Shown one piece after another: positions 4,055 to 39,700 of a DNA stretch of 64,000 bases. The stretch lies in the IMG/VR virus record IMGVR_UViG_3300023174_000034, one strand, 5' to 3'. Position 1 is the stretch's first letter. The number at the start of each line of letters is the position of its first letter. Below the pieces are notes generated by a model that saw only the letters and a list, made by a program, of their open reading frames with translations, had not been told where the DNA came from and did no database searches. Both the position numbers and the translations under genes were made by a program. This DNA comes from a virus. Lineage: Duplodnaviria > Heunggongvirae > Uroviricota > Caudoviricetes.

Positions 4055-5818
4055 ATGTCTTGGAAAAAATACTTTAAGAGTTCAAACCTTCCTACACAGC
4101 TCACCGGAGTTGGCGGCTCTGTGAGTGTTTTGGCCAATGGTTCACAGGATGGCGCATTGAATGGCACAGGCTACCGTAACTGGCAAAGCAACTTGCCAGA
4201 AGTGTACATTGGCCACCCCAACCGTGTGGAACGTTACAACCAGTATGAACAAATGGACATGGACTCGGAAGTGAATGCTGCCTTGGACATCTTGAGCGAG
4301 TTCTCTACACAATACAACGAAGACAACGGCACACCGTTTAACTTGGATTTCAAAGAACAACCAAGCGAAAACGAAATTAAGATCATCAAGGAACAGCTAC
4401 AACAGTGGATCAGCCTTAATGAACTCAACAAACGTATATTCCGTATCTTCCGTTCAGTGATCAAATACGGTGACCAGGTGTTTGTGCGTGATCCAGAAAC
4501 ATTCAAGTTGTACTGGGTTGAGATGGGCAAAGTCACCAAGATCATTGTGAACGAAAGCGCAGGCAAAGAGCCTGAGCAGTACATTGTCAAAGACCTAAAC
4601 ATCAACCTAATGAACCTCAGTGTCACAGCAGTGGCCGCAAGTGATACCTATACCAATCATCCACAGATGGGCGGCCCTAGCGGCAGCTATGTGCAACCCA
4701 ATGCACCATTTGCTGGAGGATCGCGATTCTCACAAGCCAAGAACGAAGTGGCAATCAATGCTGAACATGTGTTGCACATGAGCCTGACAGAAGGCCTGGA
4801 TGTGTACTGGCCGTTTGGTAATTCAGTACTGGAAAACATTTTCAAAGTGTTCAAGCAGAAAGAACTGCTGGAAGACGCTATCATTATCTATCGTGTGCAA
4901 CGTGCACCGGAACGCAGGATCTTCAAGATTGACGTGGGCAACATGCCCAGCCACATGGCCATGGCATTTGTGGAACGCATCAAGAACGAAGTGCATCAGC
5001 GCAGGATTCCTACTTCAACAGGTGGTGGTACCAACATGATGGATGCCACATACAATCCACTGAGCCAAAACGAAGACTTCTTCTTTCCAACTACGGCAGA
5101 CGGACGTGGCTCATCAGTAGAAACACTAGCAGGTGGACAAAACCTTGGTGAGATAACTGACCTACACTTTTTTACCAACAAGCTATTCCGTGGCCTGCGT
5201 ATTCCTAGTAGCTACTTGCCCACAGGACTTGACGATGGAGCCAGTGGTAGCTTCACCGACGGCAAAGTAGGCACAGCACTGATCCAAGAATGGCGCTTTA
5301 ACCAGTACTGTTTGCGATTACAAAACATCTTGGCAGAGTATTTAGACAGAGAATTCAAGCTGTACATGCGCTGGCGCGGCATTAACATTGACGGTCAACT
5401 GTTTGATCTCAAGTTTAACCCACCACAAAACTTTGCACAGTACCGTCAAGCAGACGTTGATATGGCACGTATCAACACATTTGCACAGCTAGAACAGTAT
5501 GCTTACTTCAGCAAGCGTTTCTTGATGCAACGTTTCTTGGGCTTGACAGAAGCTGAAATGACAGAAAACGAAAGCATGTGGGCAGAAGAACAAGGTGATG
5601 CAGAGCAAGCACCTGTAGATTCAGCAAGTCTACGTTCAGTTGGCGTAACACCAGGTGGTATACAAACAGACTTGGATAGTGCAGAAATACCAACAGATGA
5701 TACCGGTGCTGAAGCTGGCATGCCTGGTGACATGGGTGCCGATGCCACAGGTATAAACAGCCCAATAGCTGGTGGAGCACCTCCTTCTGGCCTGGGCGCA
5801 GCCCCAATGCCAGCTTAA
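4055..5818 (+). CDS. gp20: portal vertex protein
   Basis: Motifs LEDAIIIYRVQRAPERRIFKIDVGNMP, EDFFFP, GGQNLGEITDL, LRIPSSYL; TAAATA at 4025-4030. Confidence 0.95.
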   Translation: MSWKKYFKSSNLPTQLTGVGGSVSVLANGSQDGALNGTGYRNWQSNLPEVYIGHPNRVERYNQYEQMDMDSEVNAALDILSEFSTQYNEDNGTPFNLDFKEQPSENEIKIIKEQLQQWISLNELNKRIFRIFRSVIKYGDQVFVRDPETFKLYWVEMGKVTKIIVNESAGKEPEQYIVKDLNINLMNLSVTAVAASDTYTNHPQMGGPSGSYVQPNAPFAGGSRFSQAKNEVAINAEHVLHMSLTEGLDVYWPFGNSVLENIFKVFKQKELLEDAIIIYRVQRAPERRIFKIDVGNMPSHMAMAFVERIKNEVHQRRIPTSTGGGTNMMDATYNPLSQNEDFFFPTTADGRGSSVETLAGGQNLGEITDLHFFTNKLFRGLRIPSSYLPTGLDDGASGSFTDGKVGTALIQEWRFNQYCLRLQNILAEYLDREFKLYMRWRGINIDGQLFDLKFNPPQNFAQYRQADVDMARINTFAQLEQYAYFSKRFLMQRFLGLTEAEMTENESMWAEEQGDAEQAPVDSASLRSVGVTPGGIQTDLDSAEIPTDDTGAEAGMPGDMGADATGINSPIAGGAPPSGLGAAPMPA

Positions 5819-5845
5819 TTTACCATTTAGGGTAAATAGTGTATC

Positions 5846-6091
5846 ATGCACATATTTGAATTTTTTGACAAGCCCATATACGGAAGAGAAGATCCAAGCG
5901 AGGATCATTCTACATTGAAGCTGGATGATAGACGCAAAACACGACTAACTCTAGCCCAAATTAACAGACTTCGCATGATGAATGACGTTAAGAAAGTAGA
6001 ACACGAGCACCAGTTAAAGCGTGTGAGCAAACAGTATAAAGCGGCACCACAAGAAGGAGCGGCGGGTGCAGGTGCACCTGCTAGCCTATAG
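5846..6091 (+). CDS. small head-associated hypothetical protein
   Basis: 81 aa with RKTRLTLAQINRLR; own TAAATA at 5833; lies between portal and core genes. Confidence 0.7.
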   Translation: MHIFEFFDKPIYGREDPSEDHSTLKLDDRRKTRLTLAQINRLRMMNDVKKVEHEHQLKRVSKQYKAAPQEGAAGAGAPASL

Positions 6092-6187
6092 TTTTTTGCA
6101 AATCCTTCAAAAACATCCACATAACTGGCGAAATCTTAGCCGTTATCTTAAATAACTTAACATAGCCATATTATTAGAGGAGTTCTC

Positions 6188-7177
6188 ATGAACAAATATG
6201 AACAGCTTATAGAACACATTGTCAATGACGACGAAGCAAAGGCTCGTGCTCTATTCCACGCAATCGTGGTAGAACGCAGTCGCGAAATTTACGAATCATT
6301 GATGGACGAGGAACAACCTGGCGTAAGCCATGATGCAGTTGGCGGTCTAGTAGATGAAATCTCTGCAGACGAAACTGGTATGCACGAAGCCGATGAAGAA
6401 CTAGGTATGCCTGGTGACGACATGGGTGGCGACATGGGTGACGACATGGGTGACGACATGGGTGGCGATATGGGTGGCGATATGGGTGGCGACAGCGAAG
6501 CACCTGCTACCAAAGGCGACATCATGGACCTAGAGTCTGCAATTGACGAATTAAAAGCTGAGTTTGATCGCTTGATGGGCGACGAAAGCAGTGACGACAT
6601 GGGTGGCGAAGAAGACTTCGGCTCAGAAGAGGGCGACGATGAAGAAGGCGACGATGAAGAGGGTGGAGAAAATCCATTTGCTAGCGACGACGACGGAGAA
6701 GGCGAAGAAGAGCCAGCAGACGACGAAGAAAAAGTTGCTGAATCACGCCGTCCAAAGACTGAAGCAGAACGTATTCGTGAATACGTAGACCGCGTTGGTA
6801 TGGACTGGGACAAAGGCGCAATGAAGGGCCCAAAGGGTGAAAACGTTGGTACTGGTGCTAAATCAGAACGCCAAGGTGAAAAGAACACCAAGTCAATCAT
6901 TGACAACATGAAAAACGACATGGGCGGCACAAGTGCTAACATGAATCGTCGTGCAGAAGAAGCCAATCCAGACGGTCAAACACCATCAGGCAAAGCAGGC
7001 GGATTCCTAAAGCCAGCACAGGAAATTGATGTTGCCAAGCGTAACGTCAACAAAGTAGGTGGCAACAAAGGCGCACAAAATTATTTTAACGGCAAGACAT
7101 CTACAAAGAGCGGTGAAGAAGGCGGTACCAACGCCAAGAGCATCGAACCAGGTGGTAAGTCTGGCTTCAGCAAGTAA
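6188..7177 (+). CDS. acidic prohead core / internal scaffold protein (gp67/gp68-like position)
   Basis: Very acidic low-complexity middle region; GAGGAG SD; TAAATA at 6149; directly upstream of the protease. Confidence 0.65.
   Translation: MNKYEQLIEHIVNDDEAKARALFHAIVVERSREIYESLMDEEQPGVSHDAVGGLVDEISADETGMHEADEELGMPGDDMGGDMGDDMGDDMGGDMGGDMGGDSEAPATKGDIMDLESAIDELKAEFDRLMGDESSDDMGGEEDFGSEEGDDEEGDDEEGGENPFASDDDGEGEEEPADDEEKVAESRRPKTEAERIREYVDRVGMDWDKGAMKGPKGENVGTGAKSERQGEKNTKSIIDNMKNDMGGTSANMNRRAEEANPDGQTPSGKAGGFLKPAQEIDVAKRNVNKVGGNKGAQNYFNGKTSTKSGEEGGTNAKSIEPGGKSGFSK
6413..6493 (+). repeat. 12-nt coding tandem repeat GGTGRCGAYATG, about 6.75 copies (G[GD]DM)
   Basis: Read directly from the sequence. 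Confidence 0.9.
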
Positions 7178-7194
7178 TCGGATAAAAATATATA

Positions 7195-7842
7195 ATGGCT
7201 TATCTTAAAGAGAATCTTACATTTGATGCGGCACGTATGGAAGTCCTCACTGAGGAATCCAACGACGGCAAAGGTGGTAAGAATCTCTATTTGAAAGGTA
7301 TATGTATCGAAGGTGGTATCAAGAATGAAAACCAACGTATATATCCCATTCCAGAGATCCAACGAGCCGTTGGCACAATCAACGAAACACTCAAGGGCGG
7401 CAAGTCTGTTCTTGGTGAAGTTGATCACCCAGATGACCTTAAAATCAATCTTGATCGTGTGAGCCACATGATTACAGATATGTGGATGGACGGTCACGCT
7501 GGCATTGGAAAATTAAAGATTCTACCAACACCGATGGGTAACCTAGTGAAAACTATGTTAGAGTCGGGTGTGAAGTTAGGAGTGAGCTCTCGTGGTAGCG
7601 GTAACGTAAACGAGAGTTCTGGTCACGTCAGTGATTTTGAAATAATCACTGTAGACATTGTAGCACAACCATCTGCGCCACATGCGTATCCACATGCCAT
7701 TTATGAAGGGCTTCTTAACATGAAGCATGGTCATAGAGTTATGGAAATTGCAGGCGAAGCAGGACAAAATCAAAAAGTTCAGAAATATCTGAAAGAGGCT
7801 GTTGTGCGCCTTATCAATGACTTAAAAATAGGAGATAGGTAA
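7195..7842 (+). CDS. gp21: prohead core protease
   Basis: Motifs GEVDHP, INLDRVSH, LPTPMG, GVSSRGSG, TVDIVAQPSAP (U9-type peptidase). Confidence 0.95.
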   Translation: MAYLKENLTFDAARMEVLTEESNDGKGGKNLYLKGICIEGGIKNENQRIYPIPEIQRAVGTINETLKGGKSVLGEVDHPDDLKINLDRVSHMITDMWMDGHAGIGKLKILPTPMGNLVKTMLESGVKLGVSSRGSGNVNESSGHVSDFEIITVDIVAQPSAPHAYPHAIYEGLLNMKHGHRVMEIAGEAGQNQKVQKYLKEAVVRLINDLKIGDR

Positions 7843-8942
7843 TGTTTGATGCTATCAAACCTTTGTTGGATGCAGGTATCATCAACGAAGACACCCGTCA
7901 GGCTATTAACGAAGCATGGGAATCTAAGATTAACGAAGCACGTGAACAAGCACGTGCCGAGCTACGCGAAGAATTTGCTACTCGTTACGAGCACGACAAG
8001 AGTGTCATGGTTGAAGCCCTTGACAGCATGGTTACCGAGGCCTTGTCTGTAGAAATACAAGAATTTGCAGAAGAAAAGAAAGCACTAGCAGAAGACCGTG
8101 TACGTTTCCAACGTACCATGTCTGAAAATGCTGGTAAGTTTGATCAATTCATGGTTAGCAAGCTAGCAGAAGAATTGAAAGAACTACGTGCAGACCGCAA
8201 GCAGTATCAAGAAGGCATCAAGCGTCTTGAGAAGTTTGTTATCACTGCATTGGCTGAAGAGATTCAAGAATTTGAAACAGATAAGAAAGCCGTGGTAGAA
8301 GCTCGTGTACGTATGGTGTCAGAAGCCAAACAACAACTAGCTGATCTAAAAGGTCAGTTTATTGCACGTAGCGCCAAGTTGGTCAAAGAAGCTGTTGCTA
8401 CTAATCTAGACACAGAGATCACACAACTCAAAGAAGACATCCAGTCAGCACGTGAAAACATGTTTGGCCGTCGTTTATTTGAAGCATTTGCTAGCGAATT
8501 TGCAGTCACTCACTTGAATGAGAACCGTGAAATTCTAAAACTTCGTGCAGAGAAATCTGCTACAGAGCAAGCACTAGTAGAAGCAAAAGCTCAAGCTGAA
8601 GCAAAGACCGCTTTGGTGGAAAGTAAAGATAAAGAAATTAAGATTATCAAAGAGTCAACCACTCGCAAGGAAGTCCTTGCAACATTGTTGAAGCCTTTGA
8701 ACAAGGAGAAAGCCGCAATCATGAGCGATCTTCTTGAATCAGTGCAAGCTGAAAAACTTCAGTCTGCATTTGATAAGTATCTACCAGCAGTATTGAATAA
8801 TACATCTGCCCCTAAGCAAGCTCCTAAAGCTGTGCTTAGTGAAGGACGTTCAGCAGTAACTGGTGATAAGACTGCTAAGGTCAGCGCAATTGATGATACC
8901 ACTAACGTGATTGAAATCAAGCGTTTAGCAGGGCTAAAGTAA
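7842..8942 (+). CDS. gp22: prohead core scaffolding protein
   Basis: Coiled-coil, Glu/Ala/Lys-rich; sits between gp21 and gp23; start overlaps the gp21 stop. Confidence 0.85.
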   Translation: MFDAIKPLLDAGIINEDTRQAINEAWESKINEAREQARAELREEFATRYEHDKSVMVEALDSMVTEALSVEIQEFAEEKKALAEDRVRFQRTMSENAGKFDQFMVSKLAEELKELRADRKQYQEGIKRLEKFVITALAEEIQEFETDKKAVVEARVRMVSEAKQQLADLKGQFIARSAKLVKEAVATNLDTEITQLKEDIQSARENMFGRRLFEAFASEFAVTHLNENREILKLRAEKSATEQALVEAKAQAEAKTALVESKDKEIKIIKESTTRKEVLATLLKPLNKEKAAIMSDLLESVQAEKLQSAFDKYLPAVLNNTSAPKQAPKAVLSEGRSAVTGDKTAKVSAIDDTTNVIEIKRLAGLK

Positions 8943-8969
8943 AACCCTAAACAGGAGAAGGAAAAAGAA

Positions 8970-10151
8970 ATGACAACCGCACTACTAGAGAGCCGTTGGG
9001 GCGAAACCAAAGATGCCCTGTTAGAAGGCCTAAATGGTTCTAAAAGAACTACAATGGGTGTAATCCTAGAGAACACCCGCAAGTACCTGGCAGAAAATGC
9101 AACAGGTGGCGCTACAGCTTCCAGCAACGTAGCTACACTGAATCGCGTGATTCTTCCAGTAATTCGTCGTGTTATGCCTACCGTTATTGCTAACGAAATC
9201 GTTGGTGTTCAACCAATGACAGGCCCAGTTGCACAAATCCATACGCTACGTGTACGTTATGCTGACACAGTCAGTGCAACTACAACTGCTGATGGCGCAA
9301 CAGCAGGTGACGAAGCACTAAGTCCATTCAAGATTGCTACTGCTTACTCTGGTTCCAGTTCAACTTCTAGAGCTGTTAACACAGCCACCCTAGAAGGTGT
9401 ACCAGGTAACCGTATTAACGTTCAAATCTTGAAACAAGTCGTTGAAGCCAAAACCCGCAAATTGTCTGCACGTTGGACATTTGAGGCTGCTCAAGACGCA
9501 CAAGCCATGCATGGTTTGGATGTTGAAGCAGAAATCATGGCAGCATTGGCTCAAGAAATCACAGTTGAAATCGACCAAGAAATCCTAGCTAGCCTACGTT
9601 CTTTGGCCGCAACTGAATTCACATATGATCAGTCAAGCGTTTCTGGTACAGCTACATTCGTTGGTGACGAGCATGCCGCATTGGCAGTTCTAATCAACCG
9701 TACAGCTAACTTGATCGCTCAGCGCACACGTCGTGGCGCGGCAAACTGGGCAGTTGTATCTGCTGAGGCTCTAACAGTTCTTCAGTCTGCTACAACTTCT
9801 GCTTTTGCTCGCACTACAGAAGGCACTTTCGAAGCACCTACAAACACCAAGTTTGTTGGTACATTGAATGGCGCAATGCGTGTATACGTTGACAGCTATG
9901 CTAACACAGGCACAGCAGTTCTTATCGGTTACAAAGGTTCTAGCGAGGCAGATGCTGCCGCGTTCTATTGCCCATACGTACCGTTGATGAGCTCTGGTGT
10001 TGTTCTTGATCCAGCTACTTTTGAACCAGTAGTTGGCTTTATGACACGTTATGGCTATGTGGAATTGACAAACACAGCAAGCTCATTGGGCAATGCTGGT
10101 GACTATCTAGGCAAGATTGGTATCACTTCTGGTACTTTGTCTTTCCAGTAA
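8970..10151 (+). CDS. gp23: major capsid protein
   Basis: Motifs RRVMPTVIANEIVGVQPMTGP, AKTRKLSARWTFEAAQD, EIDQEI, AFYCPYVPL, FMTRYG. Confidence 0.97.
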   Translation: MTTALLESRWGETKDALLEGLNGSKRTTMGVILENTRKYLAENATGGATASSNVATLNRVILPVIRRVMPTVIANEIVGVQPMTGPVAQIHTLRVRYADTVSATTTADGATAGDEALSPFKIATAYSGSSSTSRAVNTATLEGVPGNRINVQILKQVVEAKTRKLSARWTFEAAQDAQAMHGLDVEAEIMAALAQEITVEIDQEILASLRSLAATEFTYDQSSVSGTATFVGDEHAALAVLINRTANLIAQRTRRGAANWAVVSAEALTVLQSATTSAFARTTEGTFEAPTNTKFVGTLNGAMRVYVDSYANTGTAVLIGYKGSSEADAAAFYCPYVPLMSSGVVLDPATFEPVVGFMTRYGYVELTNTASSLGNAGDYLGKIGITSGTLSFQ

Positions 10152-10915: not shown

Positions 10916-10932
10916 ACAAATAATTATCAGTT

Positions 10933-10964
10933 AAAAAAATACCCGAAGCATTTCTGCTCCGGGT
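10933..10964 (-). terminator. intrinsic terminator closing the putative sRNA
   Basis: Minus strand reads ACCCGGAGCA-GAAA-TGCTTCGGGT-ATTTTTTT. Confidence 0.8.
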
Positions 10965-11000
10965 ACCAACTAAACAGGATGCTGTCTGACTAGCACCTGT
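10933..11000 (-). ncRNA. putative small RNA (~68 nt, two hairpins, intrinsic terminator)
   Basis: Bounded by a sigma70 promoter and a hairpin plus T7 tract; no ORF inside; hairpin ACAGG-UGCU...AGCA-U-CCUGU followed by the terminator. Confidence 0.6.
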
Positions 11001-11004
11001 ATGT

Positions 11005-11033
11005 ATTATATAGCAGACACAACTACAAAGCAA
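11005..11033 (-). promoter_or_regulatory. sigma70-type promoter
   Basis: Minus strand TTGCTT-17 nt-TATAAT. Confidence 0.7.
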
Positions 11034-11042
11034 ACTATTAGG

Positions 11043-11132
11043 TAAATATAATGTTCACTTGACACTCAAGTAACTTATGCGGTACCCACCGCGTAGGCCT
11101 AGAACGCTAAATCATATTAAGGAGAAAAACAA
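11043..11132 (+). promoter_or_regulatory. late promoter plus structured 5' leader
   Basis: TAAATA at 11043; hairpins ACTTGA-CAC-TCAAGT and TATGCGGT-ACCC-ACCGCGTA; TAAGGAG SD. Confidence 0.55.
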
Positions 11133-11876
11133 ATGGGACGTCCTCTAAATCATAAATTCTTTGGCGACTTAAATTACGCCGCAGGCGGTGCAATGGTCGG
11201 TGGTGAAGGTGTTGCTAGCGTAGCCGCAGTCACAGGCTTGACTGGCATGGCCGCAAGTGGTCCGTTTGCAATTCTAGCCGCAGATATCACTGCACCAGAA
11301 ATTGCCGGCGGTACAAAACCAACATTGACATTCACTGCTACCAGCGCAACAGCAGGTACAGTTGCAGTTGTGACACAAGGTTCAGGTTACACATCAGCAC
11401 CAACAGTGACCGTTCGCGGCTCACTAGCAGGCGGTAGTACCACAGCAACTCCAGCAGCCACATTGACCACAACTCGTTTGAATGCTATCATTCCACAAGT
11501 TCGTATTGCTGGCACAAACCGTACCAGCGGTAATGACATCATTGCACAAAAAGGTAGCAAGCGTTTTCAAGTACAGTCACAAGACGGCTCGGGTGTTTGC
11601 AAGCTAGTGCCACGTACACCAGCAGCCGCACTAGAAATGGCTATTGCGGCAACAGACAGCCAGAGCAACACATACTGGGTAAAAAAGATCAGCAAGAACA
11701 AAGTTCAACTGATAAGAAACACCCTAGTAGGCTCAACCTGGGATATCGCTGATGGCGATACAGCAAAATGGACTATCACTGGTTCAGCTGTGGCTCCAGT
11801 TGGCGGCGGAAACCCATCAGCAACTGATGGCCCATCAGTGGTCAGCATCGGCACAGTGTTACTAAACAACGCTTAA
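11133..11876 (+). CDS. virion structural protein (possible head decoration or fibre anchor)
   Basis: MGRPL start, GSGYTSAPTVT repeat-type motif, IIAQKGSKRFQV; own late promoter and terminator; highly-expressed-type codon usage. Confidence 0.65.
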   Translation: MGRPLNHKFFGDLNYAAGGAMVGGEGVASVAAVTGLTGMAASGPFAILAADITAPEIAGGTKPTLTFTATSATAGTVAVVTQGSGYTSAPTVTVRGSLAGGSTTATPAATLTTTRLNAIIPQVRIAGTNRTSGNDIIAQKGSKRFQVQSQDGSGVCKLVPRTPAAALEMAIAATDSQSNTYWVKKISKNKVQLIRNTLVGSTWDIADGDTAKWTITGSAVAPVGGGNPSATDGPSVVSIGTVLLNNA

Positions 11877-11968: not shown

Positions 11969-12643
11969 ATGAGCTTTATTAAAAACGTCAGCGGTCCATA
12001 TACGATAAACACCATCAATCATGATGATCCTATTATTTTGGACAGCAACAATGTTATCATCAATGGTAGCCTGTCTGTTTATGGCTCAAACACATTCTTG
12101 GGCAACATTACATCAGCTGAAGTACAACAAACCTACATTGTTGACAACGTTATTACCCTAAATGCAAATGCTTCAACTTTAACAACTCCTTATCCAGGTC
12201 CATCTGGTATTGAAGTCGAACGCGGATCCGTAGAATACAATGCTATTCTGCGTTGGTATGAACCAAGCAAGACTTGGCAAATTCGTTCAAACGTTGATGG
12301 CGCAGTGTACTACAACCTTGTGGCAACCACAACAGGTAACACTCGTGTGGTTGATGACGTTGCACCACAGTTAGGCGGCAATTTGTTCACAAACAGTTAT
12401 GCTATTACAAACATAACAGGTAACATTTTCCTAGATCCAGCAACCACAGTGAGCCTCAATGGTAATCTTAGTTTACAAATGGCAGGCAATATCTGGGGTA
12501 ATGCACAAGCATACAATACCTTAATTTCAAACCAAGTTGGTGCAGGCGGCACCGGCTTGTATGTCACAACCGGCGATGGTGGCGTGACAAGCCAAGAATT
12601 GATTACAAAAAGACGTGCGATTGTTTATTCAATTGTATTTTAA
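11969..12643 (+). CDS. virion fibre/baseplate-associated protein
   Basis: DNVITLN...SGIEVERG and D.APQLGGNL motifs of phage fibre proteins; TAAATA at 11943. Confidence 0.65.
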   Translation: MSFIKNVSGPYTINTINHDDPIILDSNNVIINGSLSVYGSNTFLGNITSAEVQQTYIVDNVITLNANASTLTTPYPGPSGIEVERGSVEYNAILRWYEPSKTWQIRSNVDGAVYYNLVATTTGNTRVVDDVAPQLGGNLFTNSYAITNITGNIFLDPATTVSLNGNLSLQMAGNIWGNAQAYNTLISNQVGAGGTGLYVTTGDGGVTSQELITKRRAIVYSIVF

Positions 12644-24798: not shown

Positions 24799-27700
24799 AT
24801 GGCATTAACAAGACCACGCTATAGTCAGATACCGGACACCGATTGGAAACAAAGTGTCCGGGTCGCCACAACCGCAGACGTAGGTAACGTGATGTTGGCA
24901 GCAATGCCAAACTCAGTTGACGGCGTCACGCTTAATTTTTATGATCGTGTTCTATTAAAGTCGCAGGCCAATGCGGCACAAAATGGTATCTACTATGTCA
25001 AGGCAGTGGGTACAGGTGCCAATGGTATTTGGGAACGTACCAAAGATGCCAGCTCGGGTGGTGCGCTGGGTGCAGTTACTCCTTCAATTGTCACACAAGT
25101 TGAAGAAGGCACGATCAACAAGAATCGTACTTTCAAACTAACCACAACAGGCAATATTGATCTTGGCACAACTGATTTAAGTTTTGGTGTACAAGCCGCT
25201 GAACCAGCTGGCGCCACAGGACAGCTACAGTTTGCCAACGTCAACAATGTGATTGGTGGTGCAACAACTACCAGCTATGACTATGTAACTGGTAACTTGG
25301 TATTAACCGGTAATGTAAACACCACACTGCTGTATCAAAATGGCAAGCGTGTACCGCAAGTATTTACAAGTGCAACACCACCATCTACTCCAGCAGTAGG
25401 TGATCAATGGTATCAAATTGGCACAGATATTCTATATGAATGGTTGCAGGATGGTGCCACAGCATACTGGATTGACGTAAGCGGTGCTACCATTGCCAAC
25501 ATCAATCCCATCACAGGGGAAAACGTTGGTAGTTTAGTTGTCAATGGCGGCAACGACTCTACAAGTTCCACAACAGGTGCGTTACAAGTAGTTGGCGGAA
25601 CAGGTATCACTGGCAACTTAAATGTTGGCGGTTCTATTACATTTGGCGGTGGATCACTTGGCAGCGACCTTGTTGTTAATTCTACTGCACCGTCAACGAG
25701 TGAAACAACAGGCGCCATTCGTATTGCAAGCCCGGGCGGTTTAGGCGTCGGTGGTAATATTTGGGTTGGTGGCACGTTTGTTGCCAACAGCCGTATTCCG
25801 AGCACAAGCATCGGAACTGGCGCTATTATACTTCCGGGCACAGGCGGACTAGGTGTTGGTGGTAATGTATTTGTTGGGCAAAACTTAAATGTTTTAGGCA
25901 ACATCACCGGTGGCGGTATACGTCAGTCTATCAGTTCTGGAGCTCCGGCCAATCCTGTAGTAGGCGACCAGTGGTACCAACTTGGTACAGACATCTTGTA
26001 CCAATATGTAAGTGACGGTACTGGTAGTTATTGGGTTGACGTAGCAGGTGCAACAGTTGCCAACATCACGCAACAAACAAACACAGTAAACGACATTCAC
26101 TTGGTAAGCGGCACACCAAGCACAAGTTCAGACACTGGTGCATTGATTGTCAGTGGTGGTGTTGGTATACAAGGTAACTTGAATCTACAAGGTGGTTTTA
26201 ATATCACTGGTGGCAACTTAATTGCCAATCAAAATGTCACAAGCACAAACACCACAACTGGCTCAATGGTTGTGACTGGCCAAGGCGGCATTGGTGTTGG
26301 CGGCAATATCAACATTGGCGGCAATCTAAGTGTTGCACAAACTGCCAGCTTTTTACAAAATGTAATCATATCTGCAAATTTAGTTGCCAGCGGAACTTAT
26401 TTTGCCGCAGGTGGTCTAAGCGTCACAAATGGCAATATTGTTACAACCGGTACTAGTGCTCAAATTGGTGGACTAACAATTACCAATGGTGCAATCAGTG
26501 GAATTGCAAGTTTAGGTGTCACTGGCGCAACCAATATTGGTGGTGACTTAACAGTAACTGGTAACATTGCAGGTGGCGGTGTACGCAAGTATGCTCAAAC
26601 TGCCAAACCCACAAATGCTTTTCCTGGTGATGTCTGGTACAAGACTGATACTGACGTATACTATACCTATGTAAATGATGGCACAGCCAGTTACTGGATT
26701 GACTATACCAGTGCAACAGTTGCCAATATTACTCCACAAACAAATCAAACACTCAGTGATATTGTAATTGTAAGTGGTACTCCTGCAACCAACACCACAA
26801 CTGGTGCCCTACAAGTACAAGGTGGCGCTGGTATCACTGGTAATGTGTTTACCGGTAATTTATCTACTGGCACAGTGTCCGCTGGTGCATTTACCTATGC
26901 AAACGGTGTAAGTATTCTTCTTGGAAATGAAGGTACATATTCGAATGCAAACGTCGTTGCTTATTTGTCTGCAAGCAATATCAGTGTTGGTGGTAACCTA
27001 ACTGCCGGTGGATCATATTTCTCTGCAGGTGGCCTAAGTGTCACAGCGGGCAATATACTAGCAACAGGAGCTCGTGCAGTTATTGGTGGTTTGACTATTG
27101 AAAACGGCGGCATTAGTAGCCTTGCAAGTCTAAATGTCATTGGTTCAGGCACCTTAGGTGGCGACTTTGCAATCACTGGTAACGTTACCGCTGGCGGCTT
27201 GAGAAAGTATGCACAAGTTGGTGCACCAGCCAATCCGGTTGTGGGCGATGTTTGGTACAAAACGGACACAGATGTATTCTACCAATACGTAAACGATGGA
27301 ACCAACAAGTACTGGATTGACTATACCAGTGCTACCGTTTCAAACGCCAGCCCAACTAGCCCACAAAGTCTACAAGACTTACAAATCGTTTCAGGTACAC
27401 CTTCAACAGGCTCTGGCACAGGCGCACTACAAGTAACAGGTGGAGCCGCAGTAACAGGTAACTTGTTCTCTGGCAACCTAAGCACAACAACCGTTGCCGC
27501 AAGCAACTTCACTTATGCAAATGGCGTAAGTATTCTTGCTGGTAACGAAGGCACATATTCAAATGCCAATGTCCTATCATACTTGGCAGCAAATGGTATC
27601 ACTGCTACCACAGCAGGAATCAGCACCACTGGTAATTTGACAGCCAGCGGATCATATCTATCAGCAGGTGGCTTCACTGCCACAGCAGGAAATATTCGTA

Positions 27701-30700
27701 CAACATCTGCCAATATTGGCGGTGTGATAATTGAGTCAGGTGGCATTGGCCAGCTGGCAAGTCTTGGTGTACTAGGCGCGGCAACAATTGGTGGTGACGT
27801 TGCCATCACTGGTAACATCACAGCAGGCGGACTACGCAAATATGCACAGGCAGGTGCACCGGCTAACCCAGTTGTGGGTGACGTTTGGTACAAAACTGAC
27901 ACTGATGTTTACTATCAGTACATCAATGATGGCACAAACAAATATTGGATTGACTATTCAAGTGCAACTGTTTCTAATGCAAGTCCAACTACATCTCAAA
28001 GCCTACAAGACCTACAAATTGTAAGTGGTACGCAAAGTACAAGCACAGGAACTGGTGCGTTGGTTGTACAAGGTGGTATTGGTGCAAGTGGTAATGTATT
28101 TGTTGGCAACGTATCCACTGCCACAGTGTCTGCTTCAAACTTTACCTATGCCAACGGTGTGAGTATTTTACTGGGCAACGAAGGCACTTACTCAAATGCC
28201 AATGTCACTGCTTACCTAACAGCTAGAACAACAACCATCAGTGATGGATTTTTGAGCACAGCTGGACTAACAGTCACAGCAGGCAATCTTAAAACTACAT
28301 CTGCCAATATTGGCGGATTGATAATTGAAAACAACAGCATTAGCCAATTGGCAAGTATTGGTGTTGTTGGGGCTGCAACCATTGGTGCTGACCTAGCAGT
28401 TACAGGAAATATCACAGGCGGTGGCCTACGCAAGTATGCACAAGCAGGTGCTCCAGCAAATCCAATTGTGGGTGACGTTTGGTACAAGACTGACACTGAT
28501 GTGTACTATCAATACATCAATGACGGCACAAACAAATACTGGGTTGACTATGCGGGTGCAACTGTAAGCAATGCAAGCATTACCAGCAGTCAAATCTCTT
28601 ACGACATTGTTGTTACTACAGATACTCAGAGCACAAGTACCACCACAGGTGCTGTTCGCGTTCAGGGTGGTATTGGCTTAATTGGCAATATCTACACCAC
28701 AGGCATTGCTGACATTGGCGGTAACCTGACTGCCGGCAATATCAAAGCCAACAACAATCTACAAACAAACACACTAGCAGTGGTTCAAAATGCCACAGTT
28801 GGTGGCACCCTAACCGTAACTGGTGCAGTAGCCACTGGTAACTTGACCACAGGCAATATTACAGGTTATGGGTTTACTACTGACGCCGGCAACCTAACTG
28901 CAACTGGTCAGTATTTTTCTGCAGGTGGTGTAAGTGCCACAGCAGGCAATATTTCAATTGGAAACATTGCAGGTTACGGATTCACTGTAAGCAATGGCAA
29001 TATCACATCTACCGGTACTCGTGCTGTTATTGGCGGATTAGAAATCATCAATGGCGGGTTTGGTTCGCTAGCAAGTTTAGGTGTAACAGGTGCGGCAACA
29101 TTTGGTGCCAACGTTGATATTACAGGTCGTGTGACTGGTGGTGGTATCCGTAAAACATCCAGCACCACTGCGCCTGCCAGCCCAATTGTTGGCGACACAT
29201 GGTACAAAACAGACACAGATACTTTATATCAATATATCAATGATGGCACAAGCAACTATTGGATTGATATCTCTGGAGCCACTGTTGCCAACATCAGTCC
29301 ACAAACAAATCAAACGCTAAACGACATTGTTATCGTAAGTGGTACACCTGCAACCAATACCACAAGTGGTGCCTTGCAAGTTCAAGGTGGCGCTGGCATA
29401 ACTGGCAACGTGTTTGCTGGCAATTTGTCAACTACAACTGTAGCGGCAAGTAACTTCACTTATGCCAACGGCGTAAGCATTTTACTAGGCAACGAAGGCA
29501 CATATTCAAATGCCAACGTCACTGCCTACCTAACAGCCAAGACAGTGGCAATTAGTGACGCCGGCAATGTTACTTCAAGTGGTACATATTTCAACACAGC
29601 TGGTCTAACAGTTCTCAACGGAAATGTAACAGCAACCGGTACAACTGCTACCATTGGCGGGCTGGTAATCAACAACGGCTCACTACCAAGTTTACCTACA
29701 TTGGGTGTATTAGGAGCCGCTACTATTGGTGGCGACATAGCAGTCACTGGTAATATCACAGCAGGTGGTTTACGCAAGTACGCTCAAGTAGGAGCTCCTA
29801 CAAATCCAGTGGTAGGTGATGTTTGGTACAAGACTGATACTGATGTATTTTATCAATATGTCAATGACGGTACTAACAAATATTGGATTGACTACACCAG
29901 TGCCACTGTAAGCAATGCAAACCCAACAAGCCCACAGAGTTTACAGGATCTACAAATTGTCAGTGGCACACCAAGCACAAGTACCACAAGTGGTGCTCTA
30001 CAAGTAACTGGCGGCGCTGGTATTTCTGGCAATGTCAATGCAGGTAACGTAACAACAGGCACACTAACAGCCACAACAGTGAACTCGTCTGGTGTTATTG
30101 TTGGCACAGGATTCACTTATGCAAATGGTGTGAGTATCCTGGTTGGTAACGAAGGCACATACTCTAATTCAAATGTTACTGCTTACCTAACAGCTAGAAC
30201 AACAACCATCAGTGATGGCTTCTTAAGCACAGCAGGAATGACAGTTACTGCTGGTAACTTGAAAACAACTTCTGCCAACATTGGTGGTGTTGTAATTGAG
30301 TCAGGTGGCATTGGGTCATTGGCAAGTTTGAACGTAATTGGTGGCGCAACAATTGGTGGCGATATTGCTATCACCGGCAACATCACTGGCGGCGGTATCC
30401 GTAAAACATCAAGTGCATCTGCACCTGCCACTCCAACCGTTGGCGATCAGTGGTACAAAACTGATACTGATACACTATACCAATACATCAACGATGGTAC
30501 GAGCAAGTACTGGATTGACGTAGCAGGTGCTACAGTTTCTAATGCAAGCATTACTAGCAGCCAGATTGCCTACGATATTGTAGTCACAACAGATACTCAG
30601 TCAACAAGTACAACCACCGGTGCTATCCGAGTACAAGGTGGTATTGGTCTAATTGGTAACATTTACACAACCGGTATTGCCGACTTTGGCGGTAACTTAA

Positions 30701-33700
30701 CTGCTGGCAATATCTTATCTAACAACAACTTGCAAACAACAACCTTGCAAGTCACAAGTGATGCAAACGTTACTGGCAACTTGTCTGTTAACAGAATCAC
30801 AGCCAGTGGTAATATCACCAGCTCAGGACAATATTTTAGTGCGGCAGGCCTGAGTGTAACCAATGGCAACATTATCACAACTGGTACAACTGCTACTATT
30901 GCTGGGTTGCAAATCACCAATGGTGCATTGCCAACATTGCCTACACTAGGCGTAACTGGACTAGCAACATTTGGTGCAAATATTGACGTCACCGGCAGTG
31001 TCAATGTCACCGGCAACATCACAGGCGGCGGACTACGCAAGTATGCCCAAATTGGTGCTCCTGCCAATCCAGTGGTGGGTGATGTTTGGTACAAAACCGA
31101 TACCGACGTATACTATCAGTATATCAATGATGGCACAAACAAATATTGGATTGACTATTCAAGTGCAACAGTAAGCAACGCAAGTCCGACAAGTCTACAA
31201 AGCATTCAAGATCTAGCAGTGGTTGGTGGTACAGTAAGCACAAGCACATCAACAGGTGCAATAACAATTCTCGGAGGTGTTGGTTTATCCGGCAATATCA
31301 ATGTAGGTGGCAATGCTTCTGTTGGTAATTTGGTCGCCAGCGGTGTAGTCTCTGGGACTGGATTCACTTATGCCAATGGTGTGAGTATCCTGGTTGGTAA
31401 CGAGGGAACATACTCTAACTCAAACGTAACTGCTTACCTAACAGCACGTACTACAACCATCAGTGATGGATATTTGAGCACCGCTGGCATTACTGTAACT
31501 GCTGGTAACATCTTTGCCTCGAGTGCAAATATTGCAGGCGTAATAATCAGCTCAGGCGGATTAAGTAGTCTTGCTAGTTTGGGTGTAGTAGGTGGTGCAA
31601 CCATTGGCGGTGATCTTGCAGTCACTGGCAACATAACTGGTGGTGGTATTCGCAAAACAACAAGCATTAGTGCTCCTACTAGTCCGGTAGTTGGCGACCA
31701 GTGGTACAAACAAGATACAGATACCTTGTATCAGTACATCAATGATGGCACAACCAAATATTGGGTTGACGTGGCAGGCGCTACCGTTTCCAATGCTCGT
31801 ACAAGTGGCGATCAAATTGCCTACGATATTGTAGTTACAACAGACACACAATCGACTAGCCCAACAACAGGCGCAGTAAGAGTACAAGGTGGTATTGGTC
31901 TAATTGGTAACATCTATACCACAGGCATTGTGGACATAGGCGGAAACCTACGTGCCGACAATATCACAGCAAACAACAATGTTCAGACCAATACTCTGCA
32001 AGTCATTGGTGACACAAATGTAAACAAACTCACAGCAGTTGGTAACATTACCAGCAGTGGTACATACTTTTCTGCAGGCGGCATTAGTGTCACAAACGGC
32101 AACGTAGTCGCCACTGGTACTAGTGCCACCATTGGTGGCCTAGTTATTAACAACGGTGGATTGCCAAGTTTACCAACACTGGGTGTGATTGGCGCCGCAA
32201 CGTTTGGTGCCAACGTAGACGTAACCGGTAACGTGAATGTAACTCGAGACATCATTGCATCTGGTAATATTGTTGCTGGTGGTGTACGCAAGTATGCCCA
32301 GACCAGCAAACCCACAAACGCAGTACCAGGAGATGTGTGGTACAAGACTGACACAGATGTTTACTACACCTATATCAACGACGGCACCAGCAAGTATTGG
32401 ATTGACTATGTAGGTGCTACAGTTAGTAATGCCGCAGTTGACAACTCAACAAATCGTGACTTTACTATTGCCAGTGGTACATTAAGCACAGATCCTACTA
32501 CAGGTGCATTGGTCGTGGTAGGCGGTGTGGGCATAACAGGCGACATCAACACTACAGGCGATTTCTCAATTGATGGTACATTCACAGCATGTACCGCAGT
32601 AACAGCAGGTTACTTAAACGTTGCAGACGGTATTGACAGCTACGGTAATGTGATCATTCATGGCCCTGGAACTGCAAACTACACAGTACAAGTTCGTTCT
32701 AGCGATGCCGCAGACAACGTGCTTGGAATCAAGACCAGTGTAGCAGGCGGTGGATTTGCGATTGATGCACTGAACAATGAATTGATTGGCGCCACACCAT
32801 TGGGTATCAATGCCAACACATTCAGCATTGGAATCAAGAACGCAGTTGGCTCAACAGTACAAGCAGATGCGCTAAAGGTAAACACTGCTGGAAATGTCAG
32901 CATTGCTAAAACATTGAGCATTGGTCAGCATGTGGACGTTACTGGCAATGTTACTGCTAGCAATGCAACTTTTGTCAACAAGATAACAGCAACCACAGCC
33001 AACTTTACCACAATGAATTTGAGTGGTACATTAACTGTACCAACGTTGAATGTAACCACAACTATTGATGCTCCGGGCATCCGTAAGTATGCACAAACCA
33101 CAGCACCTGCCAGCCCAGCGGCTGGAGATGTTTGGTACAAGACCGACACAGATGTATACTATACCTATGTGAACGATGGTACAGCCAATTATTGGATTGA
33201 CTATGCAGGTGCTACAGTTAGTAATGCCGCAGTTAGCACAAGTCAATCAGTTGATTTGCGTATTGCATCTGGAACAGAAAGCACCAACACTGACACTGGT
33301 GCATTGACTGTAGTTGGCGGAATTGGTTTAACTGGTAACATCAACGCCAATTACTTGCGTGGCACGGGTATTGTTTCAGACCGCTTTACATTCAGCAATG
33401 GTGCAAGTCTTGCCGCAACAATAACAGGTACCTACAGCAATACCAATGTTGCAGGTTATCTATCTGGCAGTATAACTGCTGGCAGTATCAACGTAACAGG
33501 AACATTAACTGCTCCTGGCATACGCAAGACACAAAGCATCACAGCTCCGGCAAGTCCAGTGGTTGGTGACTTGTGGTACAAGACCGACACAGATGTTTAT
33601 TATCAATACATCAATGACGGTACAAGCAACTATTGGGTTGACTATGTGGGTGCTACTGTAAGCAATGCCGCAGTAACCGCAGGCGCGGCAACAGATTATG

Positions 33701-36700
33701 CGTTCACATCCGGAACACCAAGTACCAGCACAAGTACTGGTGCTGTAGTTATATCAGGCGGCGTTGGCATCAGTGGTGATTTGTTCACTGGCGGGTTTGC
33801 TAACTTTGGCGGCAACGTAACAGTTAATAATCTAAATGCCAATGTAAATGTCCAAACAAATACTCTAGTTGTTTCTGGTTCCGGCGCAATAGTTGGTAAC
33901 CTAACAACAGGCAATTTGGCAACGGGTATTGCAACCATTGCTCGCGCAGACATTGCTGGCACACTTGCAGTTGGCGGCGATGTAACAGTTACTGGCAACA
34001 TTGTTGCAGGAGGTGTCCGTAAAACACAAAGCACATCACCTCCAGTTAATCCTGTGGTTGGTGACTTGTGGTACAAGACAGATACTGATGTTTATTACCA
34101 ATACACATCAGATGGTGTGAACAAATACTGGATTGACTATGTAGGTGCAACAGTATCTAATGCCGCAGTTCAGAATAGCAGTAGTGTTGACTTCACAATA
34201 ACCAGCGGCACAGAAAGTACAAATACAACAAGTGGTGCGCTGACCATTGTTGGTGGCGTGGGCATAACTGGCAACATCAATGCTGGCAATGTAATAGCCA
34301 CCAGCTTCCGTGCAGATAACTTCTTGTTTGCAAATGGCAGAACACTTGCTGACCGTATTACTGGTACTTACAGTAACTCAAATGTAACAGCGTATCTAAC
34401 CGGATCAATCACAACAGGTGACCTCAATGCTGGTAATATCACAGCAGGTAACATTGCAACAACAGATATAACCTCTAGAGATATTACAGCTCGTAATGTC
34501 GCACTAAGCGGTAACATCACAGGTGGTGGCCTACGCAAGTATGCTCAAGCAGGAGCACCAGCCAATCCAATTCTAGGCGATGTGTGGTACAAAACTGACA
34601 CAGATGTCTATTACCAATACATAAATGATGGTGCCAACTATTTCTGGGTTGACTATGTTGGCCCAACAGTTAGTAATGCCGCAGTTCAAAATGGCACCAA
34701 CAGCGACTTTGCTATTGCCAGCGGTACATTGGGTACTAGCCCAACCACTGGTGCGTTGGTTGTTACTGGTGGCGTTGGCGTAACTGGCAATATCTACACA
34801 ACCGGCATTGCTGATTTTGGTGGCAATCTACGTGCTGATAATGTCACTGCGAATGTTAATCTACAAACAAATACACTGGCAGTTGTGCAAAACGCAACAG
34901 TTGGTGGAACATTGAATGTAACCGGAGCAGTTGCTACTGGCAATATCACAACTGGCAATATCACAGGATACGGATTCACAACCAATGCAGGTAACCTAAT
35001 TGCCACAGGCGCATACCTAAGTGCAGGTGGTATCAGTGCTACATCTGGCGTACTAAGCGTTGGCAATATTATCAGCAGTGGCACTCGAGCTGTGGTTGGC
35101 GGACTCACAATTGAGAATGGCGCATTTGGCAGTGTTGCAAGTTTGGCGGTTATCGCTGGCGCAACATTTGGTGGCGACGTTGCTATCACTGGTAATATCA
35201 CAGCAGGTGGCCTACGTAAATATGCTCAAACAACCGCGCCTACTACTCCAGTTGTGGGTGACGTCTGGTACAAGACTGATACCGATGTTTATTACCAGTA
35301 CATCAACGATGGCACCAGCAAGTACTGGATTGACTATTCAAGTGCAACAGTAAGCAATGCAAGCCCAACCAGCCCACAGAGCTTGCAAGACCTCCAGATT
35401 GTTTCGGGTACAGCAAGCACAAGTACCACTAGTGGTGCGCTACAAGTAACCGGCGGTGCTGGCATCAGTGGAAATGTCACAGCAGGAAATGTTGTTACTG
35501 CTCAAGTAACTGCTGACAAATTTACATACGCAAATGGCGTGAGTATACTGGCCGGAAATGAAGGCACATATTCAAACGCAAACGTAACAGCATACCTAAC
35601 AGCTCGTAGCGTTACTATTGCAGACGGAAACATCACTGCCAATGGGGGCTATTTGGCCGCAGGTGGATTTGTTGCCACTGCTGGAAACATCCGTACTACA
35701 TCTGCCAACATTGGCGGGGTTGTAATTGAGTCAGGTGGCATTGGTCAACTGGCAAGCATTGGGGTAATTGGTTCAGCAACCATTGGTGCTGATCTAGCAG
35801 TAACAGGTAATATCACTGGTGGCGGATTGCGTAAGTATGCACAAGACACAGCCCCAACGAACCCAGTGGTTGGCGATGTTTGGTACAAGACTGATACTGA
35901 TGTGTACTATCAATACATCAATGACGGAACAACTAAGTTTTGGGTTGATTATGTGGGTGCTACTGTAAGCAATGCAAGTATCACCAGTAGCCAAATTTCA
36001 TATGATATTGTGGTCACAACTGACACGCAAAGCACAAGCACCACAACAGGCGCTATCCGTGTACAGGGCGGCATTGGCTTAATTGGTAATATCTATACCA
36101 CAGGTATTGCTGACATTGGTGGTAACTTACGTGCTGGTAACATCACAGCAAATAATAATCTACAAACAAATACTCTGGCAGTGATTCAAAATGCCACAGT
36201 TGGTGGTGTATTAACATCTGGCACATTGTCGACTGGCAACTCATCAGTTGGTAACATTGCTGGTTATGGATTTACTACCAACGCAGGTAATTTGACTGCT
36301 ACTGGTGCTTACTTTGCCGCAGGTGGCATGAGCTCTACCAATGGCAATATCACAGTTGGTAATATCAACGCATACAGCTTTATTGTAAGCAATGGCAATA
36401 TTACCAGCACAGGAACCTACGCACGAGTTGGTGGCTTAGAAATCGTCAACGGTGGCTTTACTAATCTAACAAGTTTGGGTGTAGTTGGAGCCGCAACAAT
36501 TGGTGCAGACCTAGCAGTAACTGGCAACATCACAGGTGGTGGTCTACGCAAGTACACAGGTACTACTGCACCAGCAAATCCAGTGACCGGCGATGTCTGG
36601 TACAAAACAGACACAGACGTTTACTATCAATACATCACAGACGGAACAAGTTCATTCTGGGTCGATTATACCAGTGCTACAGTTGCCAACATCACGCTAG

Positions 36701-39700
36701 CAAACGCACAATATGGTACTGATGTAGGATTTGTAAGCGGCACAACAAGCACAAATCAAACAAACGGTGCGGTGACTGTGATTGGTGGTGTAGGGGTCAC
36801 TGGCAATATCAACTTAACAGGTCGTGTGACTGCACTAGATACCATTACTGGTCAGCGCATTATTTCCAACACAAGCATTACAGGTGCTACCCTGACTGTA
36901 ACAGGCGACACCGCAGTTGGCAACTTAATTGCCGGCAACATCACTGGTTATGGATTTACCACAAACAACGGCAACGTTGTTGCAACTGGTCAATTGACTG
37001 TTGGTGGACTAGCACAAGTTCCAGGCAACTTGACTGCTACCGGGTCTTACTTCTCCGCAGGCGGACTAACTTCTACCGCAGGCGCTATCACAGGTACAGG
37101 CTTTAGCATCACTGCTGGCAATATTATTACCACTGGACAAAAAGCAGTAGTAGGTGGGCTAACAATTGAAAACGGCGCATTGCCTAGTTTGCCAAGCATT
37201 GGGGTAATTGGTTCAGCAACCATTGGTGCTGATCTAGCAGTAACAGGTAATATCACTGGTGGCGGCTTACGAAAATATGCACAAACAAGCACACCTGCAA
37301 ATCCAGTAGTGGGTGATGTATGGTACAAAACTGATACTGATGTTTATTACCAGTATATCACAGACGGAACCACAAACGTTTGGGTTGACTACACCAGTGC
37401 AACTGTTGCCAATATTACTTTGGCAAATGCACAGTATGGCTCAGACGTTGGTTTTGTAAGCGGTACAACAAGCACAAATCAAACAAACGGTGCAGTGACA
37501 GTGATCGGCGGCATTGGCGTAACTGGCAACATCAATCTAACAGGTCGTGTGACTGCACTAGATACTGTCACCGGCCAACGCATTATTTCCAACACAAGCA
37601 TCACAGGTGCTACTTTAAGTGTAGCAGGTGACTCAAGTGTTGGCAACCTAACTGCTGGCAATGTCAGTGGTTACGGGTTTACCACAAACAATGGAAATGT
37701 AACTGCAACAGGTAATATAACTGGATACGGATTTGTAACCAGCAATGGTAACCTAAGCGCATCCGGCGCTTATTTCTCCGCAGGTGGAATGACATCCACT
37801 AACGGTAACATCACTGTTGGTAACATCAACGCATACAGTTTCATTGTAAGCAACGGTAACATAACCAGCACAGGTACCTATGCTCGAGTTGGTGGACTTG
37901 AAATCGTTAATGGTGGGTTTGGTTCACTGGCAAGTTTGGGTGTAACAGGCGCCGCAACATTTGGAGCCAATGTTGATATCACAGGTCGTGTGACAGGTGG
38001 TGGTATTCGCAAGACATCTAGTACCAGTGCACCTGCCGGTCCAGTGGTTGGTGACCAGTGGTACAAAACTGACACAGACATTTTATACCAGTACATCAAT
38101 GATGGTGCAAGCAACTACTGGATTGATATGGCCAGTGCCACAGTTGCAAATGTAACACAAAGCGCACAAACTGTAAGTGATCTGGCAATCGTAAGTGGTA
38201 CACCAAGCACCAGTACTTCAACAGGTGCATTGCGTGTGGCTGGCGGTGTTGGCATCACAGGCGACATCTACACAGATGGTAATTTGAGCACAAGCCAGAT
38301 CAGTTCCGGTAGTATTATTACCAATGGATTTGCAAGAGTACAAGGCCAATTGGATGTGTTCCTGGATGCCTTTATCCAAGGTAACACAATAACCATCCAA
38401 AACAATTACACAGTTGGCGATGCACAAGTCGACGGTAATGTATTTCTACAAAAAGAACTTAGAGTCGGTGGCAACGTCACAGCGTATGGATTGAGCGTAC
38501 AAAAAGGCAACCTGGTCGCCAATGGCGCTTACTTCTCGGCAGGTGGTCTAACATCTACAGCAGGAAACTTAACTGCTGGCAATATTGTTGGGTATGGATT
38601 TACCACTAGCAACGGTAATGTAACAGCAACAGGAACTTATGCTCGAGTTGGTGGCCTAGAAATCATCAACGGTGGCTTTGGTTCGCTGGCAAGCATTGGC
38701 GTAATTGGTTCAGCCACAATTGGTGGCGATGTTGCAATCACTGGTAATATCACAGCAGGTGGTCTGCGTAAGTATGCACAAACAAGCAAACCCGCAAATC
38801 CAGTTGTAGGAGATGTTTGGTACAAAACTGATACAGATGTGTACTATCAGTACATCAATGATGGTAGTGCAAATGTCTGGGTTGACTTTGTAAGTGCCAC
38901 AGTAGCAAACATCACAACGGCCAATGCACAGTATGGAACAGATGTTGGCTTTGTTTCTGGTACATTAAGTACTAATCCGCAAAATGGCGCAGTAACAGTA
39001 ATTGGTGGCGTTGGCGTTACAGGTAGCATTAACCTAACTGGCCAAATAACTGCTCAAGGTACAATCACTGGTCAAACCCTTGTTTCCAATGGTACTATTT
39101 TTGCCACAACAATAATTGGCTCTGGATCTGCGTCATTCAGAGACATAACTGCCGGCGATGTAGCCATTGGTAATATTAACAGCGTTGGCTTTACCACAAA
39201 CAACGGCAATGTTGTTGCTGGCGGTAACCTAACAGCATATGGGCTGAGCGTACAAAAAGGCAACCTGGTTGCCAATGGTGCTTACTTCTCTGCAGGTGGT
39301 CTATCATCTACAGCAGGCGCAATTACAGGCACAGGATTCAGCATTGTTGGTGGTAACATAATTACCACTGGACAAAAAGCAGTAGTTGGTGGATTGACCA
39401 TTGAGAATGGTGCGTTTGGTAACGTAGCAAGTTTGGGTGTGATTGGTTCAGCAACTATTGGTGCTGACCTAGCTGTGACAGGCAACATTACAGGTGGCGG
39501 CCTACGCAAGTATGCACAAACAAGTACACCAGCCAACCCAATCGTGGGAGATGTATGGTACAAAACAGACGCTGACATCTATTACACTTATGTAAATGAT
39601 GGTACAAGCACATACTGGATTGACTACACCAGTGCGGCAATTGCCAACATTACTGTGGCAAACTCACAGTACGGTAGCGATGTAGGATTTGTAAGCGGTA

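Follow-up and report, generated by a model that had tools for sequence, protein, structure and literature searches.

Downstream of the major capsid gene of a T4-like jumbo phage, a short minus-strand segment combines a promoter, a hairpin and a terminator. Does this segment encode a small RNA and, if so, is its target the neighbouring capsid gene or a gene located elsewhere in the genome? The window (i.e. the whole stretch of DNA that was analysed, 64,000 nucleotides in length) is the structural region of this phage; it encodes portal, protease, scaffold and gp23 at 4055–10151, and a 5467-aa ORF occupies its tail/baseplate region (24799–41202). The nearest cultured phages for its gp23 (8970–10151, plus strand; PF07068) are Serratia BF, CBB and PA5oct-like phages (about 68% DNA identity). 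The close relatives of the window phage are contigs of 345–375 kb, and lake and freshwater sequencing runs contain parts of the window stretch (small shares). An earlier note on this DNA had proposed a stand-alone, host-polymerase-type, anti-Shine-Dalgarno small RNA, which sequence comparisons support, and had designated gp23 as its main target, which they do not. The RNA probably switches off a distant 108-aa gene, the capsid gene being at most a second target.

The promoter consists of a -35 element TTGCT(T) (11028–11033, minus strand) and, after 17 nt, a -10 element TATAAT (11005–11010, minus strand), exactly where the earlier note had placed them. The -35 element is kept in all type-A copies (type A being the form found in the window) with a variable spacer and reads TTGCT, TTGAT or TTGT in divergent types, and the -10 element is TATAAT or TATACT in every homologue. 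Conservation and folding predict an RNA of about 65 nt (10933–10998, minus strand), whose start would lie 7–8 nt past the -10 element. The proposed succession of hairpin, linker and terminator was confirmed (-30.5 kcal/mol, z -5.7). The 5' hairpin (10978–10997) has a 6-bp stem, GGUGCU/AGCAUC; its loop AGUCAGAC together with the next A (10983–10991) constitutes a first predicted seed, which pairs UGUCUGAC across the start codon of the target. The linker UCCUGUUUAGUU (10968–10979) constitutes a second one, which forms 12 bp with the Shine-Dalgarno region of the target and 10 bp with the gp23 leader. It is followed by an intrinsic terminator with a U tail (10933–10967), which shows compensatory changes at three pairs.

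The distance between TATAAT and GGTG/GATG is 7 nt in every type-A copy and the ACA extension upstream is not conserved (relatives read ACTT or ACAT), so that the RNA most likely starts at 10998/10997. With this start, the first hairpin is the GGUGCU/AGCAUC stem with an 8-nt loop and most of the seed is already unpaired; the toehold step once invoked to open this hairpin is therefore superfluous. An additional GGU/ACC pairing suggested for gp23 is likewise not conserved, and the GGU lies inside the terminator stem. Situated between the terminator of gp23 and the promoter that comes next, the RNA overlaps no gene; it has its own promoter and intrinsic terminator, independent of the flanking genes, the downstream one being optional. 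It does not carry any conserved reading frame: the frames across the loop differ between types and type A has no synonymous variation. In four metatranscriptome contig sets, the matches cover gp23 of relatives only and none covers 10928–11024, contigs being unreliable for an RNA of 65 nt. As judged from these sequence features, the element is very probably a genuine sRNA gene.

Two neighbouring features had been missed. The ATG of a class I SAM methyltransferase ORF (10915–10223, minus strand; PF08241) lies 18 nt past the U tail of the sRNA terminator. This gene is a passenger, not a fixed part of the locus, as it is found in the window and in 5 of the 15 other carrier loci tested. The copies, located behind the sRNA terminator in the window, L082, L087, L283 and L453 and somewhere in the locus in L460, display 64–89% identity. 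The copy of the window has no clear Shine-Dalgarno sequence; its expression may depend on read-through or on a leaderless mRNA. On the other side, a late-promoter-like TAAATA and the Rfam freshwater-2 leader of the next gene (11043–11135, plus strand; RF02980, 56.3 bits) mark the slot. Freshwater-2 itself (11056–11135) is divergent from the sRNA promoter, begins 23 nt beyond its -35 element, and is found in carriers and non-carriers of the sRNA alike. In a non-carrier, the minus strand of the gap between gp23 and freshwater-2 (approximately L001:5230–5330) harbours another sigma70-type promoter and a different short hairpin RNA, and in other relatives the same slot contains tRNAs or promoter-plus-ORF morons. 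This slot is a hot spot for host-polymerase units. PA5oct depends on the host polymerase and has TTGAC/TATAAT promoters (PMC7318152). The complete carrier genome G001 contains many TTGAC/TATAAT-like promoters before tRNAs and small genes, sigma70-type promoters being also found 5' of tRNA and tmRNA and of the 108-aa target gene. Its tmRNA (L519:10297–10741) is of the two-piece betaproteobacterial kind, which points to a betaproteobacterial host; it also has 30 tRNA genes, one of them called with a CUA anticodon.

Whether or not the methyltransferase follows, the sRNA is kept in T4-like freshwater jumbo phages whose capsid proteins are 81–100% identical. More than 12 distinct loci of type A (gp23 84–100% identical) emerged from pattern scans and contig look-ups. 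In the 11 that were aligned, a 30-nt core is invariant except for one G-U to A-U change in the stem of the 5' hairpin (2 of the 11 loci); the promoter spacers and the terminator stems vary, the latter with compensation. Six divergent types occupy the same slot, namely B (L296, L451), C (L453), E (L460), F (L466), G (L535) and D (L300). From A to G, every type possesses a -10 box and a U-tailed terminator in addition to the 5' hairpin, and stems and linkers differ. The same loop, AGUCAGAC, is present without variation in types A, B, C, E, F and G, on other stems in B, C, E, F and G (for example AACGCU/AGCGUU); in type D it reads CGUUAGAC (loop GUUAGAC). No such RNA was found in about 40 relatives whose slot was fully read. 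The Rfam search that had been advocated did not reveal any family covering the element; matches to NsiR1 and to toxic sRNAs were discarded, as they are below the cut-off and mostly driven by the terminator. One pattern tried on GTDB gave no bacterial homologue and loose pattern scans gave nearly only chance matches. No description of this RNA was found in the literature, a moraphage paper that was considered concerning another lineage. In a non-carrier, a perfect 11-bp hairpin with a GUCAGAC loop is located in an antisense stretch near a gene end (G007:139170–139200; L571).

When the RNA of G001 was compared with the start regions of its own genome, a gene located at G001:49618, about 190 kb from the sRNA and outside the window, came first among 537 (-11.4 kcal/mol versus a mean of -2.5, sd 1.7); all plausible starts were admitted and the rank is post hoc, as this gene had first been spotted by eye. 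Pairing energies were obtained using a simplified IntaRNA-like code and cofold. In G001, GUCAGACA of the loop pairs UGUCUGAC across the AUG and the whole linker pairs across the Shine-Dalgarno sequence, the linker helix including a one-base bulge. The gene encodes a phage-only protein of 108 aa belonging to no known family, and has its own TTGACA-17-TACAAT promoter, 5' hairpin and terminator. The P0186 leaders were fetched after this match as a forward test of the pairing: in the P0186 homologue, from a close relative and also present on a contig as long as that of carrier L287, the leader AACUAAACAGGA forms 12 perfect pairs with the linker of the window RNA, as well as an 8-bp helix with the loop (cofold gain -20.1, equalled in none of 500 shuffles). 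Taken together, loop and linker pairing with this gene accounts for 20 of the 30 conserved bases; among them are the loop and the final UU, both of which fall outside the gp23 match.

Divergent types provide further evidence. The GUUAGAC loop of type D predicted a start AUG UCU AAY (MSN) before any corresponding leader was fetched. Homologues with an MSN start do exist. One of them, P0241 (AUG UCU AAU), apparently comes from a sister genome of the D carrier: its contig equals in length the one bearing the gp23 P0071, which is 97.7% identical to that of the D carrier (P0083). With the D RNA, its leader forms a 12-bp helix spanning the start codon and a further 10 bp upstream of it (-15.1). None of the 417 decoys and 500 shuffles does as well, and cross-pairing is at background (-6.8 for the A RNA with the D target and -6.1 for the D RNA with the A target). 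This covariation is one event, seen between an RNA and a leader from sister genomes; RNA and target leader come from a single record in G001 only, the leaders for L541–544 and L545 coming from close relatives linked to the carriers by an identical protein or by the length of their contig. Types E, F and B pair the A-clade leaders at ranks 0–6 of 417 and type C at ranks 10–17 of 417. Energies on these leaders are -18 to -25 for F and G (-22 to -25 for G) and -10 to -17 for B and E, whose linkers also fit the CUAGG-type leader of this early gene. A generic anti-Shine-Dalgarno run lets types C and F pair with two leaders of non-carriers as well (L536 and L538; -9 to -12). In three non-carriers, the homologues start with MT, MF and MST and their leaders remain unpaired with types A, B and D; MSD is the start in 83 of the 120 nearest homologues. 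Non-carrier genomes were scanned for an antisense RNA by means of two exact blocks; this gave only chance-level matches, but it also missed the known G001 pair. On this sequence evidence, seed and target covary across lineages, and the unlinked 108-aa gene is likely to be the main target of the RNA.

The members of the target family keep a TTGAC-17-TAYAAT promoter in carriers and non-carriers (L519:9539–9990; L541:1400–1500; L537), and in most copies from both groups the mRNA has a hairpin at its very 5' end. The protein (108–111 aa) is basic (21 K+R versus 11 D+E), and its structural model combines a soluble beta/alpha domain, in which a KVRFAND motif is conserved, with a flexible tail that is basic. 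Its family comprises 1140 clusters at 50% identity, restricted to phages; its matches are uncharacterised proteins of uncultured phages only, and no homologue was found in cultured phages. Neither the protein nor 73 distant relatives matched any Pfam or PHROG family, and Foldseek did not detect any solved structure (E above 1, best Z 3.5). At a guess from the model, the protein might bind nucleic acid or a host enzyme. Another gene of G001, encoding 95 aa with an MSRPKPT start (G001:148665; L524:8665–8952), has a leader that pairs both seeds imperfectly (rank 3 of 537) and is a possible further target. The AACAGGA motif once pointed out in the ribosome-binding site of the gene at 12656 is present at 12642, but its pairing scores as background (-6.9 versus a decoy mean of -5.4, sd 2.7).

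How does gp23 compare? The 10-mer CTAAACAGGA occurs, as reported, only at 8947–8956 and, as the RNA template, at 10970–10979. The gp23 leader CUAAACAGGA (8947–8956, plus strand) is thus a true 10-bp complement of the linker and a possible secondary target site, but this match accounts for only 10 of the 30 conserved bases and is a subset of the 12-bp match elsewhere (gp23 shares 10 of the 12 linker-facing bases). In G001, gp23 ranks 21 of 537. Relatives whose RNA (type B) does not carry this seed have the same gp23 leader, CUAAACAGGAG. On the gp22 tree, this leader characterises one clade; its conservation therefore gives no independent support.

The RNA could nevertheless have two targets and also damp premature or excess translation of gp23, a proposal that is compatible with the 108-aa gene as main target and is plausible, if slightly doubtful. 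The RNA gene is directly behind gp23 in all carriers, and the gp23 site is the sole perfect 10-bp helix to the A linker among 417 start regions. In rankings per type (415–417 regions from the window and G001, a set from which the 108-aa early gene is missing), gp23 is 13th for A, second for B, 32nd for C, seventh for E and ninth for F among about 416 regions, i.e. in the top 0.5–8% for these five types. Type B, which does not carry the anti-Shine-Dalgarno seed for gp23, forms 10 bp with gp23 codons 4–6, type E being similar, and type F forms 8 bp over the gp23 Shine-Dalgarno sequence. When the five types are combined, both gp23 copies rank first among the 417 regions of this set without the early gene. 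However, the RNA types are related, so these ranks are not independent; the linkers of B and E also fit the leader of the early gene, and type D does not pair gp23, which comes last. Taken alone, the A linker forms only a weak helix with gp23 (-5.6 to -5.9). On the gp22 tree, the state of the leader goes with descent; it is also found in the non-carrier L014, and is one base away from common non-carrier forms. Moreover, GUUUAG..GGG of the gp22 end and gp23 leader (8923–8952, plus strand) can pair in cis with CCCUAAAC, which provides a separate reason for the conservation of CCCUAA, CCCTAA being kept in most non-carriers too.

Most relatives can form this cis hairpin, by which capsid translation may be coupled or gated. 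Polyphyly of the carriers on the gp23 tree was considered as a sign of independent tracking of the gp23 leader and rejected, since the gp22 tree makes A, B, C and F one clade. The two trees disagree for gp23 of G001, L466 and L465; on this basis, the body of gp23 seems to have been exchanged by recombination, its 5' end and the sRNA staying with the backbone. The loop can also pair, with wobble, at the start of gp22 (AUG UUU GAU), a match that was likewise set aside: it tracks the carriers, but it is a clade trait and ranks 165 of 537.

The RNA of a resident phage might instead silence the early gene of an incoming relative, or hold a carrier state, types A and D then resembling the heteroimmune c4 RNAs of P1 and P7. 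Both the RNA and its predicted target have host-type promoters and would need no phage factor, and pairing is type-specific, for which c4 is a precedent (PMC12197685). Such a role in immunity or superinfection exclusion is unlikely, as the target family, with its 1140 clusters, is far more widespread than the RNA and no RNA was found in complete non-carriers. It is very unlikely that the element is a decoy whose loop is read by a protein, or a leaderless gene for a peptide of eight codons: the invariant 8-nt loop on variable stems would fit the former, and type A does read GUG/AUG ... UAG as eight codons, but the loop changes together with codon 3 of the target, the frame in which the loop would be read is not the same in A/D as in B/C, and synonymous changes are absent from type A. 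Likenesses to the Q-beta operator, a T-box specifier, a tRNA anticodon mimic and SRP RNA fail across types, and an RNA antitoxin of a type I toxin–antitoxin system was rejected, as there is no adjacent small hydrophobic toxin and the target is unlinked, 108 aa long and basic. A reading in which the RNA acts mainly or solely on gp23 and matches the early gene incidentally is highly improbable: adjacency and the exact 10-mer speak for it, but it leaves the invariant loop and the final UU unexplained, the gp23 duplex is 6–7 kcal/mol weaker by cofold, and it is largely refuted by type D, which covaries with the early gene and not with gp23. Finally, a riboswitch or attenuator leader for the methyltransferase is scarcely tenable and, given the absent linkage, refuted as a general function, for although the ATG lies just after the U tail in the window and in a longer fold bases just before the inferred start can pair with the start region, most carriers have no such gene there and an unchanged RNA, no Rfam riboswitch matches and the alignment contains no conserved antiterminator; some read-through into the methyltransferase is possible.

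With the 108-aa gene as main target, the action of the RNA may be pictured as follows. A trans-encoded base-pairing phage sRNA of about 65 nt would be transcribed by the host sigma70 polymerase, against the direction of the late structural operon. Its hairpin loop would pair across the start codon of the target (AUG UCU GAC) and its unpaired linker would cover the Shine-Dalgarno sequence, pairing by the loop first or by the linker first opening the 6-bp stem. Judging from the position of the duplex, and as for known anti-RBS sRNAs, occlusion of the Shine-Dalgarno sequence and of the AUG would block ribosome loading and thereby repress translation. The target mRNA is probably abundant and long-lived because it has a consensus sigma70 promoter, a hairpin at its 5' end and its own terminator; the sRNA would most likely shut off or cap an early or middle product. 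Host Hfq may assist, as the terminator is U-tailed; a search of four phage records gave no Hfq. The linker may also make gp23 a second target, less strongly bound.

Among known systems, c4 of P1 and P7 is likewise a phage-encoded RNA; separate segments, displayed by its structure, pair around the ribosome-binding site of a phage gene and repress it, and sequence variants define type-specific pairing (PMC12197685). Unlike c4, whose target ant/icd belongs to its own operon in a temperate plasmid prophage, the present sRNA comes from a T4-like jumbo phage, has a target about 190 kb away belonging to no known family, is 65 nt long with its own terminator and shows no sign of processing; the Rfam covariance models of c4 gave no match at the gathering score or at E values up to 10. 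P22 sar, lambda OOP and aQ, and PAK_P4as15 are also small phage RNAs that repress genes of their own phage post-transcriptionally (PMC12197685). However, they are encoded at or next to their target and mostly act as cis-antisense RNAs (PMC12197685), whereas this sRNA is trans-encoded with a short, split complementarity; a cis-antisense mode of the OOP type was discarded, as the sRNA does not overlap its target on the other strand. PreS, VpdS (PMC12197685) and SviR (10.1101/2022.04.08.487710) resemble it as trans-acting RNAs with short seeds against 5' UTRs; in SviR there are likewise two seed regions, and this RNA reduces translation of an ICP1 gene that is linked to the capsid operon (10.1101/2022.04.08.487710). 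In its mode of pairing, the present RNA also resembles trans-acting sRNAs of bacteria. They differ in that PreS acts on a host gene (PMC12197685), VpdS binds Hfq and belongs to a temperate phage (PMC12197685), and SviR, of 210 nt, is encoded by a satellite and acts on the helper of that satellite (10.1101/2022.04.08.487710). Freshwater-2 (RF02980) shares the intergenic region and the phage group, but it lies on the opposite strand without overlap, is a cis leader of the next late gene and is present without the sRNA.

Few phage sRNAs have a known target, and those reviewed are mostly cis-antisense, encoded by temperate phages or host-acting (PMC12197685). Here, comparison of sequences suggests that a jumbo phage appears to regulate a distant gene of its own, with covariation across uncultured lineages. 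The case also illustrates that a match to a neighbouring capsid ribosome-binding site can mislead when one window alone is read. A single intragenomic target is strongly predicted for the sRNA and compensatory variants exist in nature, which makes the interaction testable in E. coli without culturing the phage. It marks the target family as one whose dose or timing matters and gives a lead to a function in host takeover or in a transcription switch. Taken as a whole, and with considerable reserve, the RNA, made by the host polymerase, might be a timing switch in an uncultured lineage of T4-like jumbo phages of freshwater Betaproteobacteria, a switch which would silence a widespread early protein by a split seed covarying with the lineage and would also restrain capsid translation, such pairs of RNA and target being potentially able to cause exclusion between related jumbo phages.
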